Of a stretch of DNA of 39,518 bases, positions 14,837 to 33,628 are shown piece by piece. Position 1 is the first letter of the stretch. Each line of letters starts with the position of its first letter. This DNA is from a virus, in UHGV virus genome UHGV-0040088; one strand, 5' to 3'. A program made the position numbers and the translations under genes. The notes under the pieces are model-generated. The model saw nothing but the letters and a program-made list of their open reading frames with translations. It ran no database searches and was not told where the DNA came from.

Positions 14837-15187
14837 TTATGCACCAGCCTTGATCCTGTTATGGATTGCGAACCCCTTAATTTCGCCGTCATGAATAACT
14901 TTGAGTACGTCAGGATCTTTTATTCCGTCAATCATATCTTTGTATTTTTCGTGGATCCTGTGTTTTTCTACAACCTCTTTATGTAGGAACGGTACTACCG
15001 CCTTATAATTGCACGCTGCGTTGTATATGACCTCCATGTACCCCATCCCTTCGCCGTATCTTATGTCGTATAGTTCTGCAGCAAATGCGCATTCACGTTC
15101 CGCTTTTTCAATCTTGTTATCTGCGTTCGCGTTGAATGCTAAACCAACCATTAACGCTACCATTGCCGCTTTGATTAACCGTTTCAT
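14837..15187 (-). CDS. cassette A: secreted (periplasmic) protein with cleavable signal peptide
   Basis: N-terminus MKRLIKAAMVALMVGLAFNANA-DN is a classic Sec signal with AxA site; mature part has two Cys; GAGCGGGGTGG SD. Confidence 0.6.
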   Translation of the reverse strand: MKRLIKAAMVALMVGLAFNANADNKIEKAERECAFAAELYDIRYGEGMGYMEVIYNAACNYKAVVPFLHKEVVEKHRIHEKYKDMIDGIKDPDVLKVIHDGEIKGFAIHNRIKAGA

Positions 15188-15199
15188 AATCCACCCCGC

Positions 15200-15286: not shown

Positions 15287-15443
15287 TTTCTTATCCTCTT
15301 TTGCTTCCTCCGGTTAATCCGGCCTTTTAAGTCCCTTTACTCTATCCCTTTCCTTTAGCCTCTTTATACAAAATGGAGTCGTTATAGTAAAGACAATTTG
15401 TATAAAATAGAGATCTAGATCACACTTTTCATGAGGTTAAATC

Positions 15444-17792
15444 ATGGCAACTAGTTTAGGTACAATTTACTACGAAGTTGATGCAAAAACTGGTCAACTT
15501 CTCGTTGCTCAACGACAGGCAGACCAGGCTTTTGACAGCATCGAGCGTGGCGCAAAACGCGCTGACCGCCAGGTGAACACGCTTAAGACTTCAATCAAAG
15601 CGCTATCCAGGGTTATCCATTTGCTACTTGCTGCGGAGGCTGTACGCCAGTTTATTGACATGGCGGAGCAAGCGAAAATGCTTCGCGTAAAAATCAAAAT
15701 GCTTACTGGTGATACGGAGGCTGCCGGACGTGTTTTCGATGGCCTGAAAGAAATATCAAAAGAAACCGGGCAAAGCATGAAGGATACTGGCGAACTGTGG
15801 CAAGGCCTTGCTATATCGCTAAAAAACACATCCGCTACTGAAGGCCAATTGCTAAACCTGGTCGGTACGATTCAGAAAATGGGTGCATTAGGCGGAGCGT
15901 CAGCGGAACAGATGTCTAACTCTATGCGCCAGTTCCGCCAGTCTATAGACGGCGGCGTGCTGCGTGCTGAAGAGTTTAACAGTCTGCTTGAAAACACGCC
16001 AACCATCGTACAGACAATGGCTCGCCATATGGGGTTGTCAATGGGCCAGTTCCGCGCCGAAATGCTGGACGGCAAGATCACGGCTGAAAGGATGGTTAAC
16101 GCGATTCAGGCGGCTACACAGGAAACAAACGAGAAGTTCGCACAGTTGCCGCGCACATCCGGCATGGCCTTCAATGAGCTAAAAGTTGAGGTGATGGGAC
16201 TTGTCGAACAGCTTGACGATCTTTTCGGCATATCTGACGGCGTTGTGTCAGCAATAGACTTAATCACTGGCGGCGTTGAGGGATTAGGTAAGGGCGCAAA
16301 ATTCGCCGCAACATGTTTCAATACACTCAAAACCGCTGGTAGCGAGTTCATCGACATGTTTGACGATGTTGCTGTTAAGGCTGGCGAGGTTGCTGAAGAG
16401 ATTATCAGGATGGTAACGCCAATCAAGGCGCTAATGGATGGGTACAAATGGATGAAGGAGATCATTGACAAACGCAAGGAAGAGCTAAACAGCAACAACG
16501 AGAAGAAATTCGGCCCCACCATTGGCAAATTCATGACATTCAAGAATGACATAGAAAAAGCCACAGCCGCCTATGACGAGTTCATGCAGAAACAGGGTGA
16601 GGCTGACGATGGCAAGATCACCGGATTCGATCAGCCAGTTGGTAAGCCCAAAAAAGGCAAAAAGGGCAAAAATGACAAGAAATCTGAAGCTGATCGGCTT
16701 GGTGATGAAGGCATAAAAGTGTCCGACCAGTACAACAAGGACGCCGCCGCCATGCGTAAAGCGCTGGAGAACGGCAAGGCCATTGATGCTGCGTTCGCTC
16801 AGGGCAAAATAACCCTCCTTGAGTACAAGGCCGCGCAGAAAGGGATAGGCAAGGAGCTGAAGGACGAATTGGCGCAAATCCCTGTTGATGAGCTACGCGA
16901 CAAATGGGATCACATAGTCAGCCCGATGGATCAGCTTAAGGGAGAAATTGACCCAATCAAGCAGGCGCAAAATGAATGGGCCGTTCGAAAACAAATGCTG
17001 ATAGACCTTGGCGCTACAGAGGCGCAACAGAAACAGGCGCTATTGGAATACGAACAACAGATCAGAGATCTGAAATGGGAGCAATGGCAGGCGCAAAGCG
17101 AAACAAACGGCCTGATTGGTGCTTGCGTTAGTGGCCTGAAAGGTGGAATGGGCAACGCCCTTACCGGCCTACTAAACGGTACTCAATCGTTAAGCGAGGT
17201 TTTCGCCAACCTGGGAAGTAGCATACTTAACACTGTTGGCAACAAACTATCAGAAATTGCCGCCAACTGGATAGCAGATCAGTTGATGATGGAAACGCAA
17301 AGCAAGGCTACCCAGGCAAGTACAACGGCTGGCGCTGTTGCTGCCCAAGGCGAGATTGCGGCGGCGGCTATCCCGGCGGCGGCGGCAACGGCTGCGTCAA
17401 CTGGTGGTAGCTGGGCGGCGGCTGGTGCTGCGGCGCTTTCTGCGATCATGTCACTGGCAACGTCAATCTTTGGCGGCGGGCGTTATAATGGTGGCTCTGT
17501 TAATGGTGGTAGTCTGTATCGCGTAGGGGAACACGGGATTCCTGAGTTATTCCAGACTAGCAACGGGCGTCAGTATATGATTCCTGGCGAGAATGGTAGG
17601 GTAATTCCTGGTCGCGATCTCTTCAGTGGTGGCGGCATCAACATGCCTGTTAACATCACTGTCCAGACCACAAACGGATTTAGCGACGAAGACAGTCGCA
17701 GACTTGAACAGACGATGGAACGCGTCGCAATGAAAATGATGGCAAGGGAATCGCAACGGCCCGGAGGGATGTTACAACCTCGCAGGAAATAA
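15444..17792 (+). CDS. tail tape measure protein
   Basis: 782 aa, highly alpha-helical with a Gly/Ala-rich C-terminal region (GGGRYNGGSVNGGS); position upstream of M-L-K-I-J. Confidence 0.85.
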   Translation: MATSLGTIYYEVDAKTGQLLVAQRQADQAFDSIERGAKRADRQVNTLKTSIKALSRVIHLLLAAEAVRQFIDMAEQAKMLRVKIKMLTGDTEAAGRVFDGLKEISKETGQSMKDTGELWQGLAISLKNTSATEGQLLNLVGTIQKMGALGGASAEQMSNSMRQFRQSIDGGVLRAEEFNSLLENTPTIVQTMARHMGLSMGQFRAEMLDGKITAERMVNAIQAATQETNEKFAQLPRTSGMAFNELKVEVMGLVEQLDDLFGISDGVVSAIDLITGGVEGLGKGAKFAATCFNTLKTAGSEFIDMFDDVAVKAGEVAEEIIRMVTPIKALMDGYKWMKEIIDKRKEELNSNNEKKFGPTIGKFMTFKNDIEKATAAYDEFMQKQGEADDGKITGFDQPVGKPKKGKKGKNDKKSEADRLGDEGIKVSDQYNKDAAAMRKALENGKAIDAAFAQGKITLLEYKAAQKGIGKELKDELAQIPVDELRDKWDHIVSPMDQLKGEIDPIKQAQNEWAVRKQMLIDLGATEAQQKQALLEYEQQIRDLKWEQWQAQSETNGLIGACVSGLKGGMGNALTGLLNGTQSLSEVFANLGSSILNTVGNKLSEIAANWIADQLMMETQSKATQASTTAGAVAAQGEIAAAAIPAAAATAASTGGSWAAAGAAALSAIMSLATSIFGGGRYNGGSVNGGSLYRVGEHGIPELFQTSNGRQYMIPGENGRVIPGRDLFSGGGINMPVNITVQTTNGFSDEDSRRLEQTMERVAMKMMARESQRPGGMLQPRRK

Positions 17793-17796
17793 ACAA

Positions 17797-17826
17797 AACC
17801 CCGGTACAATGCCGGGGTTATCTTTC
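17797..17826. terminator. bidirectional terminator after tape measure gene
   Basis: Stem ccccgg/ccgggg flanked by an A-run and a T-rich run. Confidence 0.65.
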
Positions 17827-17936
17827 GTATTTATAACCGACCATTCCGCACGATATATCCTCTTCCGAAAATTACCTGTCAAATATTCCAGTTCCCCCCG
17901 CCTGGTGAATTTATCGTCATCCATATTTCACCTCAT

Positions 17937-18461
17937 TTATGTGCCATGATTAACACCATAATATTTTTCTTCTAAAAACATCCTGTAAGCTACTGCATCA
18001 CCGAAATCGTCAAAGTATTTATTGCTTTTTCTTTTTCCGTTCACAGCTATATACACCCTCCACTGCTCCCTAGACTTGCACCACGATACACCACGAAAAC
18101 CGCTAGTATTGTTTGACTTTATTTTCCCACTCCTTACGAAATCAGCACAGTTATCAACCTGATAACCTATGTTAAGGTTTTCTATTCTATCATCACCCCT
18201 TACGTCGTTAATGTGCCTTATTACATGCTCATCAGGTATCGGGCCGTGATGCATTACCCATATAACTTGATGTCTATAGTAATTTCTCTTTTTATACGTG
18301 AATATGTAGTAACCGTTTTTATTCCTGGCGCCCACCGGACCCGGTTTTCTTCTTCCTCCATTTTCACATATTAAAGTTTTCCAATATATGTTCCCTTCAC
18401 TGTATATAAACAAGTCATTCCAGTTTATGCTATTGACCATGTCGTGATTTATTTGTGACAT
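17937..18461 (-). CDS. HNH homing endonuclease (HNH plus AP2-like)
   Basis: Motifs HQVIWVMHHGPIP, RHINDVRGDDRIENL, FRGVSW..QWR; AT-rich relative to flanking tail genes. Confidence 0.85.
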   Translation of the reverse strand: MSQINHDMVNSINWNDLFIYSEGNIYWKTLICENGGRRKPGPVGARNKNGYYIFTYKKRNYYRHQVIWVMHHGPIPDEHVIRHINDVRGDDRIENLNIGYQVDNCADFVRSGKIKSNNTSGFRGVSWCKSREQWRVYIAVNGKRKSNKYFDDFGDAVAYRMFLEEKYYGVNHGT

Positions 18462-18703
18462 CCCTTAACCCCTGATAATTCATTAAATTTATGGTGCTCA
18501 ACTATTGCCCACACTTTTAGATCCTTGCTGTACACTCGCCAATCAAGGTTGGCACGGAATGCGTAGCCGTATCCGTCTTTCAGTTTTTTGGGTGCTACGT
18601 CTTTCCTCAAGAACGCGTCCAGAAGTTCTTTTGCTTTTTTGACTACATGATCAGGTGCGTTTTTCTGTGCTTTCAGATTTTTACCAATCGCTACCAATTT
18701 CAT
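18449..18703 (-). CDS. hypothetical protein (84 aa); faint RelE/ParE-like pattern
   Basis: GGGGTGGG SD; C-terminal pattern RANLDWRVYSKDLKVWAIVEHH loosely recalls RelE-family toxins; overlaps the HNH start by 13 nt. Confidence 0.45.
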   Translation of the reverse strand: MKLVAIGKNLKAQKNAPDHVVKKAKELLDAFLRKDVAPKKLKDGYGYAFRANLDWRVYSKDLKVWAIVEHHKFNELSGVKGCHK

Positions 18704-18721
18704 AACCCACCCCGCAATCCA

Positions 18722-18877
18722 TTAGTTGACCACTTTCAGGAAGAAATCACGGTACTCATTTTCCTTCGCGTTCATCATGAATTGACCGTATTTGAATGCG
18801 TCATCAAAGCCTTTGACTATCGCCACCTCCACCTGTTCGAATGCGTTGTTCAGCATTACCACTACATAACGCTTCAT
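18722..18877 (-). CDS. hypothetical small protein (51 aa)
   Basis: Perfect AAGGAGG SD; MKRYVVVMLNNAFEQVEVAIVKGFDDAFKYGQFMMNAKENEYRDFFLKVVN; its stop provides the SD of the 84-aa gene. Confidence 0.4.
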   Translation of the reverse strand: MKRYVVVMLNNAFEQVEVAIVKGFDDAFKYGQFMMNAKENEYRDFFLKVVN

Positions 18878-18918
18878 GTTGGCCTCCTTTGTCGGTACTG
18901 CTTTTTCTTCTTGCTTTC

Positions 18919-18947
18919 TATATACATCTTGTCACGCCATATGTGAA
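18919..18947 (-). promoter_or_regulatory. candidate sigma70 promoter for minus-strand cassette B
   Basis: On the minus strand: -35 TTCACA, 17-nt spacer, -10 TATATA, about 35 nt upstream of the 51-aa ORF. Confidence 0.4.
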
Positions 18948-19046
18948 GCCATTTTGTAAACTGGTTATAATTCTTGTGATGAATTTCTCATTTTTCGCGT
19001 AGGAGCGCGTAAAGATGTATGCAATATGTAACTTATAGGGGGAATC

Positions 19047-19400
19047 ATGCCGGAAGTTTTCAGATGGACGCCGCAAAGAAGCTACAGCGTGACCAGGGAA
19101 CCAAACGTATCTGTCATTAAACTTGGTGATGGGTATGAACAACGCCAGGCGAAAGGGATTAACACATTACTTGATAGTTACACCCTGGTTTTTAAAGGCA
19201 GTAGTGCAGGATGCGGCGATGGTGGGAATGTAGCAATCCAGGCGGAAGCATTCTTGAGGGCGCGCGGCGCGGTCGAGGCTTTTTACTGGTCGCCGTCGAT
19301 GGATAACGTGCAGAGGCTTTTTGTTTGTCGTAGCTGGAGTATGACCAAAGACGGGCCTGTGTATACGCTAAATGCAACATTTGAGCAAGTTATTAATTAG
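19047..19400 (+). CDS. M: minor tail protein M (lambda gpM-like)
   Basis: 117 aa; shares FRW, GDGYEQRQ and C-terminal FEQVIN with lambda gpM (recalled sequence FRWKV, GDGYSQR, FEQVVN). Confidence 0.85.
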   Translation: MPEVFRWTPQRSYSVTREPNVSVIKLGDGYEQRQAKGINTLLDSYTLVFKGSSAGCGDGGNVAIQAEAFLRARGAVEAFYWSPSMDNVQRLFVCRSWSMTKDGPVYTLNATFEQVIN

Positions 19401-19410
19401 GGGAGGGGAT

Positions 19411-19593
19411 ATGCCTTATTTTTGTGTAGTGGAGCGCACTGGCGCTTTTACATTATTCGCCGACTATGAAATTAATGATCTTACTGTCCGGGCTGATAAC
19501 GGTGAGACGTGGTATCTTCATGATATGGGTGATGGATATATCGGCTGTACGACTTGGGATGGCAAAGAAGTAGCATTTCTATCCTACGATTAA
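19411..19593 (+). CDS. hypothetical small protein (60 aa) inserted between M and L
   Basis: GGGGAGGGG SD before ATG 19411; followed by a terminator. Confidence 0.45.
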   Translation: MPYFCVVERTGAFTLFADYEINDLTVRADNGETWYLHDMGDGYIGCTTWDGKEVAFLSYD

Positions 19594-19623
19594 AAAAAAC
19601 ACCCCGCCACGGCGGGGTTTATA
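19593..19623. terminator. bidirectional terminator between 19411..19593 and minus-strand cassette C
   Basis: A7, stem ccccgc/gcgggg, then TTTAT. Confidence 0.65.
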
Positions 19624-19694
19624 GTGTCGATAGTAGAATGCATAACAATCCAATGATGATAATAATCATTTCTAGAACGTAATGTTCGCACATC

Positions 19695-19943
19695 TCATAA
19701 CGCACCCTTCAAATATGCCAATCCCTTATCGGTGACGAATGAATGGTTAACCTGGTTTTCATCCGTCATGATGATGAATAACTTTTCCTGTAGGTATTTC
19801 GCTTTCGGGTACAGCGTTAAACAGACCTGGTACAGTATCCCGCGCTCAATCAGCAAATCAATAAATTCGTGTTCATGATAACCGACGAGGCGGGCGGCCT
19901 GTTTCAACGTGTACACATAATCGCCGTGATTGCGCCGCCCCAT
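19695..19943 (-). CDS. cassette C: small putative HTH DNA-binding protein (82 aa)
   Basis: Segment YTLKQAARLVGYHEHEFIDLLIERGIL looks like a helix-turn-helix; AAGGCGG SD. Confidence 0.45.
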   Translation of the reverse strand: MGRRNHGDYVYTLKQAARLVGYHEHEFIDLLIERGILYQVCLTLYPKAKYLQEKLFIIMTDENQVNHSFVTDKGLAYLKGAL

Positions 19944-19952
19944 GTTGCCGCC

Positions 19953-20303
19953 TTATTTATCGAACGCAGACAAATTGTCGATACAGAAATCTTTTGCCGC
20001 TTTTTCGTATTCGCGTTTTGCTTGCGGATTGTCTGCCGGGAAACCTTTTGCGTGTATTTCACCAGGGCAAGCCTGATCCATAGAGTCGGCAAATTCAACA
20101 TTGACGTTAAAGTTAATATCTTTCGGGTTCATCTCTTCCACCTTATCCGGCACTTGCACCGGAATAACATAATAATCACGAGCACCAGACCAACAGCGGA
20201 GCAATTCACAACCTTCATTACGCGCTGATTCGAATGTGTCAAATAGTCCTATGCTTTCCCACTCACATTTATCAGTCCACACGTCTAATCTGTATTTTTG
20301 CAT
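19953..20303 (-). CDS. cassette C: hypothetical protein (about 117 aa)
   Basis: Start at MQKYR (20303) avoids overlap; alternative ATG at 20357 gives 134 aa. Several Cys; no recognised motif. Confidence 0.5.
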   Translation of the reverse strand: MQKYRLDVWTDKCEWESIGLFDTFESARNEGCELLRCWSGARDYYVIPVQVPDKVEEMNPKDINFNVNVEFADSMDQACPGEIHAKGFPADNPQAKREYEKAAKDFCIDNLSAFDK

Positions 20304-20316
20304 TTTTGTTAACCTT

Positions 20317-20472
20317 TCATTTGGCAGGTTCGATCCTGTATCCCAAAACGCGGTCATCTTCAGTAAGTAAAAGCGCGTCAGTCAGTGCCTCGCCTTCGTC
20401 TTTATACAGAGCCACAGTCATTTCCCTGCCGCCTGACAGGAATACCGTCAACCTCCACACCTTATCATCCAT
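20317..20472 (-). CDS. cassette C: hypothetical small acidic protein (51 aa)
   Basis: GGAGGTG SD before ATG 20472; MDDKVWRLTVFLSGGREMTVALYKDEGEALTDALLLTEDDRVLGYRIEPAK. Confidence 0.4.
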   Translation of the reverse strand: MDDKVWRLTVFLSGGREMTVALYKDEGEALTDALLLTEDDRVLGYRIEPAK

Positions 20473-20518
20473 ATCACACCTCCGCGCCATTTTGTTAACC
20501 ATGCTTACTTTTGAGTAC

Positions 20519-20547
20519 AATATACATATTGTAAAAATCGCTATCAA
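20519..20547 (-). promoter_or_regulatory. candidate sigma70 promoter for minus-strand cassette C
   Basis: On the minus strand: -35 TTGATA, 17-nt spacer, -10 TATATT, about 40 nt upstream of the 51-aa ORF. Confidence 0.45.
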
Positions 20548-20553
20548 CCGTTT

Positions 20554-20562
20554 TGGTATGAT
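20554..20562 (+). promoter_or_regulatory. candidate extended -10 promoter (TGgTATGAT) upstream of gene L
   Basis: TG-n-TATGAT 39 nt upstream of the L start; back-to-back with the cassette C promoter. Confidence 0.3.
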
Positions 20563-20600
20563 TTAGCGTGACGGCGATCACAAAATGACAAGGTGAAAAA

Positions 20601-21305
20601 ATGCGCAGCATACCTACAGAAATGATTATTGATTCCGTCGATGCCGGAGTCGGCGCGGTAATTGATTTGTTTGAATTAGACCTCACGCCCCTGGGTGGCG
20701 AGGTTATCCGCTTCCATTCCGGCGCGAATGGTTATTACGGCCCGGTTATCTGGAAGGGAGTGACTTACAACAGCTACCCAATCGAGGCTACTGGCTTCGA
20801 AATGAAAAACGAAGGTGTTTACTCGCGCCCGCAAATGGTAGTAGCCAACATTGGCGGGCTAATCACCGGGATGAACAACGATTTTAACGACCTGCGAGGA
20901 ATGAAGGTTACGCGCCGCCAGGTGGAAGTAAAATACCTGGACGCTGTTAACTTCCCCAACGGCAATCCAGATGCAGATCCATCTATTGAGGCTGTATCTT
21001 TTTACGTCGTTGAGACGATGAGCGAAGAAACAGCCGACCAGGTGCAATATGAACTGTCAACGCCAATTGATGCTGACAAGGCGGTTATCCCCGGGCGCAC
21101 AATTCTCGCTGACGTTTGCCAGTGGCAATATCGCGGCGACGGTTGCAGATACAGTGGCGGCCCCGTAGCTACTGACAAAGACGAGCTAACCAGTGATCCG
21201 AAGCTGGATAAATGCAGCCACCGCCTAAGCGGTTGCCGTTTGCGTTTTCCGCGCCCTAATCCGTTACCAATTTCCTGTTTCCCTGGATCCAGCAAGGTGG
21301 GTTGA
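20601..21305 (+). CDS. L: minor tail protein L (lambda gpL-like)
   Basis: 234 aa; C-terminal Cys cluster (CQWQYRGDGCRYSGG...CSHRLSGC) as in gpL; position M-L-K-I-J. Confidence 0.85.
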   Translation: MRSIPTEMIIDSVDAGVGAVIDLFELDLTPLGGEVIRFHSGANGYYGPVIWKGVTYNSYPIEATGFEMKNEGVYSRPQMVVANIGGLITGMNNDFNDLRGMKVTRRQVEVKYLDAVNFPNGNPDADPSIEAVSFYVVETMSEETADQVQYELSTPIDADKAVIPGRTILADVCQWQYRGDGCRYSGGPVATDKDELTSDPKLDKCSHRLSGCRLRFPRPNPLPISCFPGSSKVG

Positions 21306-33067: not shown

Positions 33068-33628
33068 TCAAAACAATTGCAATTGAAAACGTTCGCTGAC
33101 TTCTTTCATTAACTGCTTAACATGTTTCTTATCACGCTTTCGCTGAGTTAACAGGCGGCTTCCAACCTTGCCGACCGTTTCGCTATCAGTAGCAAAACTG
33201 CTTACTGCATTCATTACCTGTTCACAGCTTGCGCCGCAACAAATAAGACCCTTAACGTGTTCAGCCATGTCATCATGTGTTTTAGGTTTTTCTCCGTAAT
33301 AGCCATTATGACGAATAGATGGCAATACTTCCTCAAACACCCAATCCTGGAAGCGTTCGGCTGATTCAAGTTTTGAATGCATAATCAAGCGGAAAACATC
33401 CGGTTCGTAAATCAGGCCAACTCCTTTCGGCTTGAATCCGAATCCTAATTCTCGCGTTTTGCGAGAATCAAGTTTAATCAATGATTTACAGTGTTTTTTA
33501 ATAGCATCATGCTCGTTCTTATAACCTAACGCGCGAGCAACATTAACAGCAACAAAAGCTGGCTTATCTGCATAAATAACCGTTTGCACTTGTTTATCAT
33601 CAAACGAGAATTTAACAACCTTATTCAT
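33068..33628 (-). CDS. Bro-N domain protein (antirepressor-like), paralog 1
   Basis: N-terminal roughly 105 aa are about 75 percent identical to 37744..38481; typical Bro-N pattern (KPAFVAVNVARALGY); unrelated C-terminus. Confidence 0.8.
   Translation of the reverse strand: MNKVVKFSFDDKQVQTVIYADKPAFVAVNVARALGYKNEHDAIKKHCKSLIKLDSRKTRELGFGFKPKGVGLIYEPDVFRLIMHSKLESAERFQDWVFEEVLPSIRHNGYYGEKPKTHDDMAEHVKGLICCGASCEQVMNAVSSFATDSETVGKVGSRLLTQRKRDKKHVKQLMKEVSERFQLQLF

Follow-up and report, generated by a model that had tools for sequence, protein, structure and literature searches.

The secondary immunity region immI of phage P22 (mnt, arc, and ant) lies among late genes, and prophages of Escherichia coli carry paaR-paaA-parE, a three-component toxin–antitoxin operon. 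Morons are said to have been defined by Juhala et al. in 2000, and HK97 gene 15 was reportedly treated by Cumby et al. in 2012. HK97 gene 15 is a moron situated between the tail-chaperone and tape-measure genes of a lambdoid tail operon (PMC3594210). In AriS, a protein of a Listeria phage, the isolated ANT/KilAC domain suppresses the SOS response, probably via RecA (PMC9043618); no other functional work on such a separate domain was found. The subject here is the interval between the genes for minor tail proteins M and L in UHGV virus genome UHGV-0040088 (39,518 nt; this whole stretch is called the window), which belongs to a temperate E. coli siphophage of the mEp021-like (mEpimmI) group. The interval contains one sense gene, p60, and an antisense operon of three genes, p51, p116, and p82, annotated so far as hypothetical proteins only. 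The antisense operon is best read, with a probability of roughly 55%, as a module of mEpimmI phages, expressed in the lysogen or early, that has a regulatory role or modulates the host. What is unusual about the locus is its persistence at one spot combined with the fast evolution of two of its proteins; a stand-alone KilAC protein in phages that are not inducible by ultraviolet (UV) light, and CRP-like sites before all three antisense cassettes of the tail operon, are further noteworthy points.

As in the lambdoid tail morons, the locus is extra DNA with its own promoter and terminator and a lower G+C content, and it appears not to be needed for the tail. Unlike HK97 gene 15, it combines one sense gene with an operon of three antisense genes, and nearly every member of the family has it at the same junction, with no occurrence seen elsewhere; its products also appear to be cytoplasmic and soluble, whereas the gene 15 product is a membrane exclusion protein. 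The parallel with AriS is that p82 passes the ANT/KilAC threshold and that the AriS domain is active alone. However, the two proteins are related at the family level only, and p82 is encoded in a tail operon whereas AriS is encoded in an early region. The two-domain fusion of AriS-like Ant regulators (AntA/AntB, Bro-N, or pRha joined to KilAC) was not seen in p82, which is KilAC alone. The likeness to P22 immI lies in a regulator-type cassette within late genes that encodes an Ant-family protein along with small proteins and has a palindrome overlapping its promoter. Against this likeness, p82 is far smaller than P22 Ant, p51 is probably a β-β-α-β protein (by its probable paralogy with p116) where Arc and Mnt are ribbon-helix-helix proteins, and none of the M–L proteins matched Arc or Mnt. 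With paaR-paaA-parE, the locus shares three small prophage genes in one operon, one of them encoding a helix-turn-helix (HTH) protein, near a ParE-like cassette, but no toxin or antitoxin domain was recognized in p51, p116, or p82 in Pfam or NCBIfam, and the HTH-last order is atypical.

Four Genes between M and L

The locus is flanked on the left by M (19047–19400, + strand; PF05939, E value 1.5e-28) and on the right by L (20601–21305, + strand; PF05100, E 6.8e-71). The M and L genes of lambda share 1 nt, and its H, M, and L overlap one another; here the two genes are 1,200 bp apart. A preliminary description, made from the sequence alone, had pointed to a 1.2-kb separation of genes that are adjacent in lambda, and this is borne out. 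The same description listed a 60-residue open reading frame (ORF) on the + strand and three ORFs on the minus strand. The 60-residue ORF, the acidic 51-residue ORF, and the 82-residue ORF were right, and the middle one encodes 116 rather than about 117 residues. p60 (19411–19593, + strand) begins 10 nt past the M stop codon and has the ribosome-binding site (RBS) GGGGAGGGG. The antisense operon runs from p51 (51 residues; 20317–20472, minus strand; phrog_29559, E 2.6e-23; GGAGG RBS) through p116 (116 residues; 19953–20303, minus strand; phrog_38567, E 2.4e-43) to p82 (82 residues; 19695–19943, minus strand). A longer version of the middle gene, of 134 residues from an ATG at 20357, was rejected: its homologues are 115–120 residues long, and phrog_38567 aligns from residue 19.

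For comparison, 54 related junctions were extracted from phage records, E. coli chromosomes, and IMG/VR contigs, and ratios of nonsynonymous to synonymous substitution rates (dN/dS) were calculated from about 40 distinct alleles per gene. The values were 0.09 for p60, 0.10 for p82, and 0.24 for p51; within p116 they were 0.23 for residues 1–56 and 0.09 for residues 73–116. The flanking genes gave 0.07 (M, 85–99% identity among relatives) and 0.04 (L, 84–100%). Because dN/dS values of 0.09–0.24 reflect purifying selection, the four ORFs of the interval are genuine genes.

Fixation of the Locus in mEpimmI Phages

The DNA segment 19000–20700 is 88–90% identical to seven mEp021-like phages and was matched at 84–95% identity in 35 of 5,426 complete E. 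coli genomes. In E. coli of the human gut, mEp021-like phages are reportedly as common as lambdoid ones (PMC11893012). The cassette was present at the junction in all seven related phages, in 34 of the 35 E. coli genome matches (scored by the KilAC gene), and in every viral contig that reached the junction. Across the 54 extracted junctions, p82 and p116 were each found in 53, p60 as an intact ORF in 52, and p51 in 50, and the order was constant: p60 forward, followed by p82, p116, and p51 in reverse orientation. Altogether, the p51-p116-p82 trio occupied the M–L junction in about 75 relatives, and no match placed it in any other genomic context. Exhaustive or indexed searches with p116, p82, and p51 returned Escherichia and Shigella only. 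For p51, every occurrence was at the M–L junction, and even its most divergent homologues (38–43% identity) lay between L and p116-p82. In a published pangenome, a "KilAC-like antirepressor" is listed among the near-core genes, and the cassette is not discussed (PMC11893012).

Variation within this fixed arrangement is confined to defined places. An optional slot 3′ of p82 holds tm45 in 27 loci, x67 in 10, and in other cases x49 or x58; a second slot, between p116 and p82, holds genes x77–93 in seven loci; and an unrelated gene stands in place of p51 in three loci. The slot genes (tm45, x67, x77–93, x85, x49, and x58) gave no informative match in Pfam or PHROG. One natural deletion was found in the prophage of E. 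coli MS 21-1 (NZ_CP146670.1; locus L004, 4400–4525), in which all four genes are gone and the M–L gap is 124 bp. The sequence from ATTTTGTTAAC onward is retained, including the antisense promoter, which now aims into M without a terminator. The prophage may have been derived recently or be defective.

Beyond the family, ten prophages of other Enterobacterales (L059–L068; one record is titled Chryseobacterium) carry an L gene of 68–72% identity. Three of them, from Franconibacter, Intestinirhabdus, and Lonsdalea (M 61–69%, L 68–72%), have an M–L gap of 5–45 bp. Another six have unrelated small ORFs at this position, typically one sense and one antisense, in gaps of 335–527 bp, and in the remaining one no M match was found. 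Because the junction is empty or differently filled in these distant prophages, it is a recurrent cargo site in such tail modules, with one cargo fixed in mEpimmI phages.

Accessory Character of the Locus

Several features bear on the status of the interval as a moron. It is extra DNA between genes that are otherwise adjacent, by comparison with lambda, the three distant prophages, and MS 21-1; it has, at the sequence level, its own promoter and terminator; and its base composition differs modestly from that of the surrounding genes, with a G+C content of 0.439 for 19594–20600 versus 0.489 for M, 0.521 for L, and 0.509 for the tape-measure gene (15444–17792, + strand). The trio is not sporadically distributed; behavior typical of mobile cargo was limited to p60 and the genes of the optional slots. 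Pfam and PHROG searches gave no structural-protein similarity for the genes of the interval. Searches with all four proteins returned no PADLOC-DB 2.0 family at E values up to 1 and no NCBIfam match, and p60, p116, and p51 had no match in Pfam. Neither PADLOC and NCBIfam nor any solved structure lent support to the phage-resistance or immune-inhibition roles raised in the preliminary description. Given the absence of the locus from lambda, three other genera, and MS 21-1, and the lack of structural matches, the interval reads as an accessory, moron-type, nonstructural locus that is not part of the tail machinery. The moron-type accessory functions suggested in the preliminary description are thus upheld as to accessory character, but independent insertion, if a sporadic and traveling moron is meant, is not, since the trio is family-wide and locked in position. 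Its proposed comparison of M–L junctions likewise had a divided outcome, with extra DNA relative to lambda and the distant prophages and near-uniformity within the family.

p60 fits this picture from another direction. The protein is acidic and matches phrog_3249 (E 2e-16), and it has homologues of 40–51% identity in virulent T1-like phages (Rtp rtp57 and SU57), where their neighbors are small hypothetical genes, in the region bounded by the helicase/VRR-NUC and lysis genes. Because its homologues occur among the small genes of virulent T1-like phages, p60 would seem to be a mobile accessory gene that is useful in lytic growth and not a tail part.

A KilAC-Only Protein, p82

p82 matches the Pfam ANT/KilAC family PF03374 with 27.5 bits against a gathering threshold of 25.3 (E 4.1e-6), over profile positions 23–102 of 108, and precomputed PF03374 matches exist for its homologues. 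The protein is conserved like the tail proteins, with 87–98% identity among relatives. An AlphaFold model, built from only eight close sequences and with a predicted local distance difference test (pLDDT) score of 82, begins with a strand followed by a helix-turn-helix. The putative HTH protein of the preliminary description therefore finds agreement at the fold level, and p82 is modeled as a KilAC-only protein with a MerR/excisionase-like HTH.

Lysogens of mEpimmI phages are not UV inducible, and their repressor lacks an Ala-Gly cleavage site (PMC11893012). Because of this, and by analogy with the activity of the AriS KilAC domain, a role for p82 in the control of induction is plausible. The phage also encodes a Bro-N-only protein of 186 residues (33068–33628, minus strand), which matches the N-terminal halves of Ant-type antirepressor families and does not resemble p82. 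This phage thus encodes in two genes, 13 kb apart, the Bro-N and KilAC domains that Ant proteins usually carry fused.

Variable and Invariant Parts of p116 and p51

p116 is divided into two parts with different histories of change. Residues 1–56 are hypervariable, with a mean difference of 40% between relatives, and residues 73–116 are nearly invariant in an alignment of 28 homologues; this part contains two of the five cysteines of the protein (C79 and C107) as well as H84, which is itself nearly invariant. AlphaFold2 modeled residues 1–50 as a β-β-α-β domain with a pLDDT of about 94, while the C-terminal half scored below 60, and the C-terminal tail is predicted to be disordered apart from one helix. 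This pattern suggests that the tail becomes folded through contact with a conserved partner or by binding a metal. A profile of p116 run against 1.84 billion representative sequences recovered, apart from family members and fragments, just two long proteins of repetitive sequence, and the solved-structure and profile searches gave no sequence or structural relative outside the family. Matches to solved structures by sequence were attributed to chance, among them an exact DSMDQSC in cytochrome c nitrite reductase (E 0.18) and one to HepS (E 0.26).

p51, which is acidic (isoelectric point (pI) 4.5), varies widely among relatives (43–96% identity). When its profile was aligned with that of the p116 N-terminal domain using hhalign, 46 of 51 columns were paired with a probability of 65% and a P value of 6e-5 (control pairs gave P values of 0.007–0.66). 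The two are probably tandem paralogues. The 51-residue protein of the neighboring cassette B looked by eye like a further homologue of p51 and the p116 N-terminal domain, but hhalign P values of 0.16–0.41 did not support this. The name "transporter" given by NCBI to the 51-residue protein looks spurious; the protein is small, soluble, and acidic, and has no membrane segment. Distances computed for adjacent segments (p51, the N-terminal, middle, and C-terminal parts of p116, and p82) barely correlate with one another (r 0.01–0.35), and the locus therefore appears to have been reshuffled at a sub-gene scale.

Putative Control Elements

The 128-nt intergenic region between p51 and L precedes L and contains the predicted σ70 promoter of the antisense operon (20519–20547, minus strand; TTGATA-17-TATATT), which at 10 of 12 consensus positions is the top match within 17500–21000. 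The total of promoter-like sites in that range is not above that in shuffled sequence; the promoter is credible because TTGAT(A/C)-17-TATATT is retained in 41 of 42 distinct relatives, not because of site counts. The minus-strand promoter of the preliminary description thus holds, as does its remark that the M–L and cassette B promoters have a core in common: the window contains TATACAT(A/C)TTGT at two positions only, 18921 and 20521, each upstream of a minus-strand cassette, although the pattern was derived from these same two sites and a chance estimate is thus not independent. A weakly predicted promoter-like site faces L (20492–20521, + strand; TTGTTA-18-TACAAT, 9 of 12 positions); it is conserved and still present in the deletion variant MS 21-1.

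The −10 hexamer of the antisense promoter is covered by an operator-like palindrome (20517–20532; ACAATAT-AC-ATATTGT), a perfect 7+7 inverted repeat that has no or one mismatch in all 42 distinct relatives. The core common to the two promoters is the right half of this palindrome, and a degenerate copy, TCTATATACATCTTGT, lies upstream of cassette B. As a LexA box, the palindrome ACAATATACATATTGT was rejected by eye, having neither the CTGT nor the ACAG arm. A GATC (Dam) sequence occurs in the −35 hexamer of 33 of the 42 relatives (TTGATC), where the window has TTGATA (20542–20547), and another lies inside the CRP-like site described below (20576–20579); methylation-sensitive control of the antisense promoter is conceivable.

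The consensus for CRP binding is TGTGA-N6-TCACA, and at class I activated promoters the site is centered near −61.5 or −71.5. A candidate site upstream of the antisense promoter (20567–20582; CGTGA-CGGCGA-TCACA) is one of only two CRP-like cores with at most one mismatch in the 39.5-kb window. The other, at 18975–18990, is in the promoter region of cassette B; both sites fall inside the 297 nt that make up the two antisense promoter regions. Among the relatives, 39 of 42 have no more than one mismatch at the M–L site, with its arms kept and its spacer variable, and folding of the GTGA...TCAC repeat gave no stable RNA hairpin. With transcription assumed to start 7 nt past each −10 hexamer, the centers lie at about −62.5 (M–L), −70.5 (cassette B), and −42.5 (a weaker site at cassette A), each within about 1 base of a classical CRP activating position. 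CRP control of the antisense cassettes is offered as a hypothesis. At cassette A, the promoter region (15375–15430, minus strand) contains TGTGA-TCTAGA-TCTCT at 15424–15409 and a TATAAC −10 hexamer without a −35 hexamer; a site at about −42.5 corresponds to a class II CRP layout.

At the other end of the operon, an intrinsic terminator hairpin (19601–19618, minus strand) consists of a 7-bp G+C stem with a folding energy of −13.9 kcal/mol, followed by a run of eight U, GUUUUUUUU, on the minus strand. Read along the + strand, the stem runs into UUUAUAG only, and the scan called a terminator on the minus strand alone. The hairpin had been taken for the terminator of the + strand ORF; it is indeed present, but its U8 tract belongs to the minus strand, the + strand having UUUAU only, and it would serve mainly the antisense operon, weak as it is in the direction of p60. 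As such, it should halt antisense transcription before p60 and M. A scan of Rfam gave a single subthreshold match, which was over the terminator.

Proposed Role and Alternatives

If the operon is a regulatory or host-modulating module expressed in the lysogen or early in infection, host RNA polymerase would transcribe it at those stages, while the late operon is silent, and converging late transcription would later damp it. The antisense promoter would be repressed via the palindrome over its −10 hexamer and modulated by cyclic AMP (cAMP)-CRP near −62. p82 would be the conserved effector or regulator, either binding DNA, possibly its own operator, or acting, in the manner of the isolated KilAC domain of AriS, on some conserved partner, for example the SOS/RecA pathway or the phage repressor. 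p116 and p51 would provide variable specificity through their small, fast-evolving β-β-α-β domain, and the invariant p116 tail, disordered when alone, would probably dock onto a conserved partner, possibly p82. p60 would be a separate accessory gene, expressed late and common to virulent T1-like phages.

A number of observations weigh against this interpretation. AriS comes from a phage of Gram-positive bacteria and is distantly related, and the activity of its KilAC domain was seen on overexpression. About 1.3 CRP-like cores with at most one mismatch are expected per window by chance, conservation of the cassette B site is only moderate (26 of 42 relatives have no more than one mismatch there), and the antisense promoter is near consensus and may need no activator. 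Homology between p51 and the p116 N-terminal domain stands at the 65% probability given above, and the co-variation of the two is weak (r 0.35), no better than with L, and does not point to a specific p51–p116 pairing. The MS 21-1 deletion is no proof of dispensability, because its antisense promoter still points into M and the prophage may be defective.

The layout of the operon, antisense to late genes and with its own σ70 promoter and terminator, is the classical one of lysogen-expressed morons (PMC3594210), and would equally suit an anti-phage defense or toxin–antitoxin-like module in which p116 or p82 arrests growth, p51 acts as a check or decoy, and the hypervariable domains detect incoming phages by their proteins. 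Nearby cassette B has a similar promoter core and, after a 51-residue gene, one for a ParE-like toxin (PF24732); p51 and the p116 N-terminal domain evolve three to five times faster than their neighbors and are shuffled below the gene level, as in an arms race; and a variable domain joined to an invariant tail in p116 resembles sensor-effector layouts. Such a module is nonetheless unlikely, given that neither PADLOC nor NCBIfam produced a match and no toxin-type Pfam domain was seen, that p116 has no structural relative, that co-variation between p51 and the p116 N-terminal domain does not exceed linkage, and that almost every member of the family has the trio, where defense cargo is usually sporadic. 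The same rapid divergence of p51 and the p116 N-terminal domain, in a trio seen in this phage family alone, could instead reflect hypervariable domains tracking variable host targets, with the proteins acting in counter-defense or host takeover during infection, for instance as small acidic inhibitors of host immune proteins. In their small size, solubility, and acidity (pI 4.1–4.5), p51, p116, and p60 resemble many anti-restriction and anti-CRISPR proteins, and p60 has homologues in strictly virulent T1-like phages, in which a function in lysogeny is impossible. However, the operon lies antisense within the late operon, far from the early regions usual for such genes, its host-type promoter with a CRP-like site and a palindrome suggests regulated rather than immediate-early expression, and p82 is of a regulator-associated family, so that this explanation is judged distinctly improbable.

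That the M–L genes might have become fixed as tail-assembly or tail-accessory factors peculiar to this family is suggested by their near-constant presence, by the near-core standing of the KilAC-like gene (PMC11893012), and by the sense orientation of p60 and its tight coupling to M, through which it would be co-made with tail proteins. This is very improbable: three of the four are encoded antisense, behind a host-type promoter, related M/L modules work without any insert in lambda and three other genera, all four genes are missing from MS 21-1, the p60 homologues of T1-like phages lie outside the tail cluster, and there is no structural-protein similarity. A more elaborate scheme, in which the three antisense cassettes of the tail operon would form a catabolite-controlled (cAMP-CRP) prophage regulon and the M–L operon a switch of a new kind, is speculative and a long shot. 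p82 would there be held and released by the p116 tail, with the variable domains of p116 and p51 as sensors, for SOS-independent control of induction in these UV-noninducible phages or the sensing of incoming phages.

Should the M–L operon be expressed in lysogens, it becomes a candidate for the tuning of induction in UV-unresponsive prophages, for changes in host physiology, and for phage–phage interaction. If no such role holds, it is one more set of uncharacterized moron genes. The locus is also a natural system for the persistence and diversification of accessory genes within an essential structural operon: it offers a conserved effector, two paralogous domains that diversify rapidly, optional genes at defined places, and a natural deletion. 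The CRP-like sites before all three antisense cassettes provide a testable link from the nutrient state of the gut to prophage accessory expression.

Neighboring Antisense Cassettes

Cassette B (17937–18877, minus strand) begins with a 51-residue gene followed by the gene for the 84-residue ParE-like toxin (PF24732), and the two probably constitute a toxin–antitoxin pair. Its third gene in the window encodes a 174-residue HNH_3/AP2 homing-endonuclease-like protein, which only a few relatives have. Cassettes A and B have in common an 18-nt stretch, TTTCATAA[T/C]CCACCCCGC on the + strand, at 15182–15199 and 18698–18715 (94% identical). In both cassettes the stretch spans the second gene's RBS and start codon, and it is possibly a shared recombination junction.

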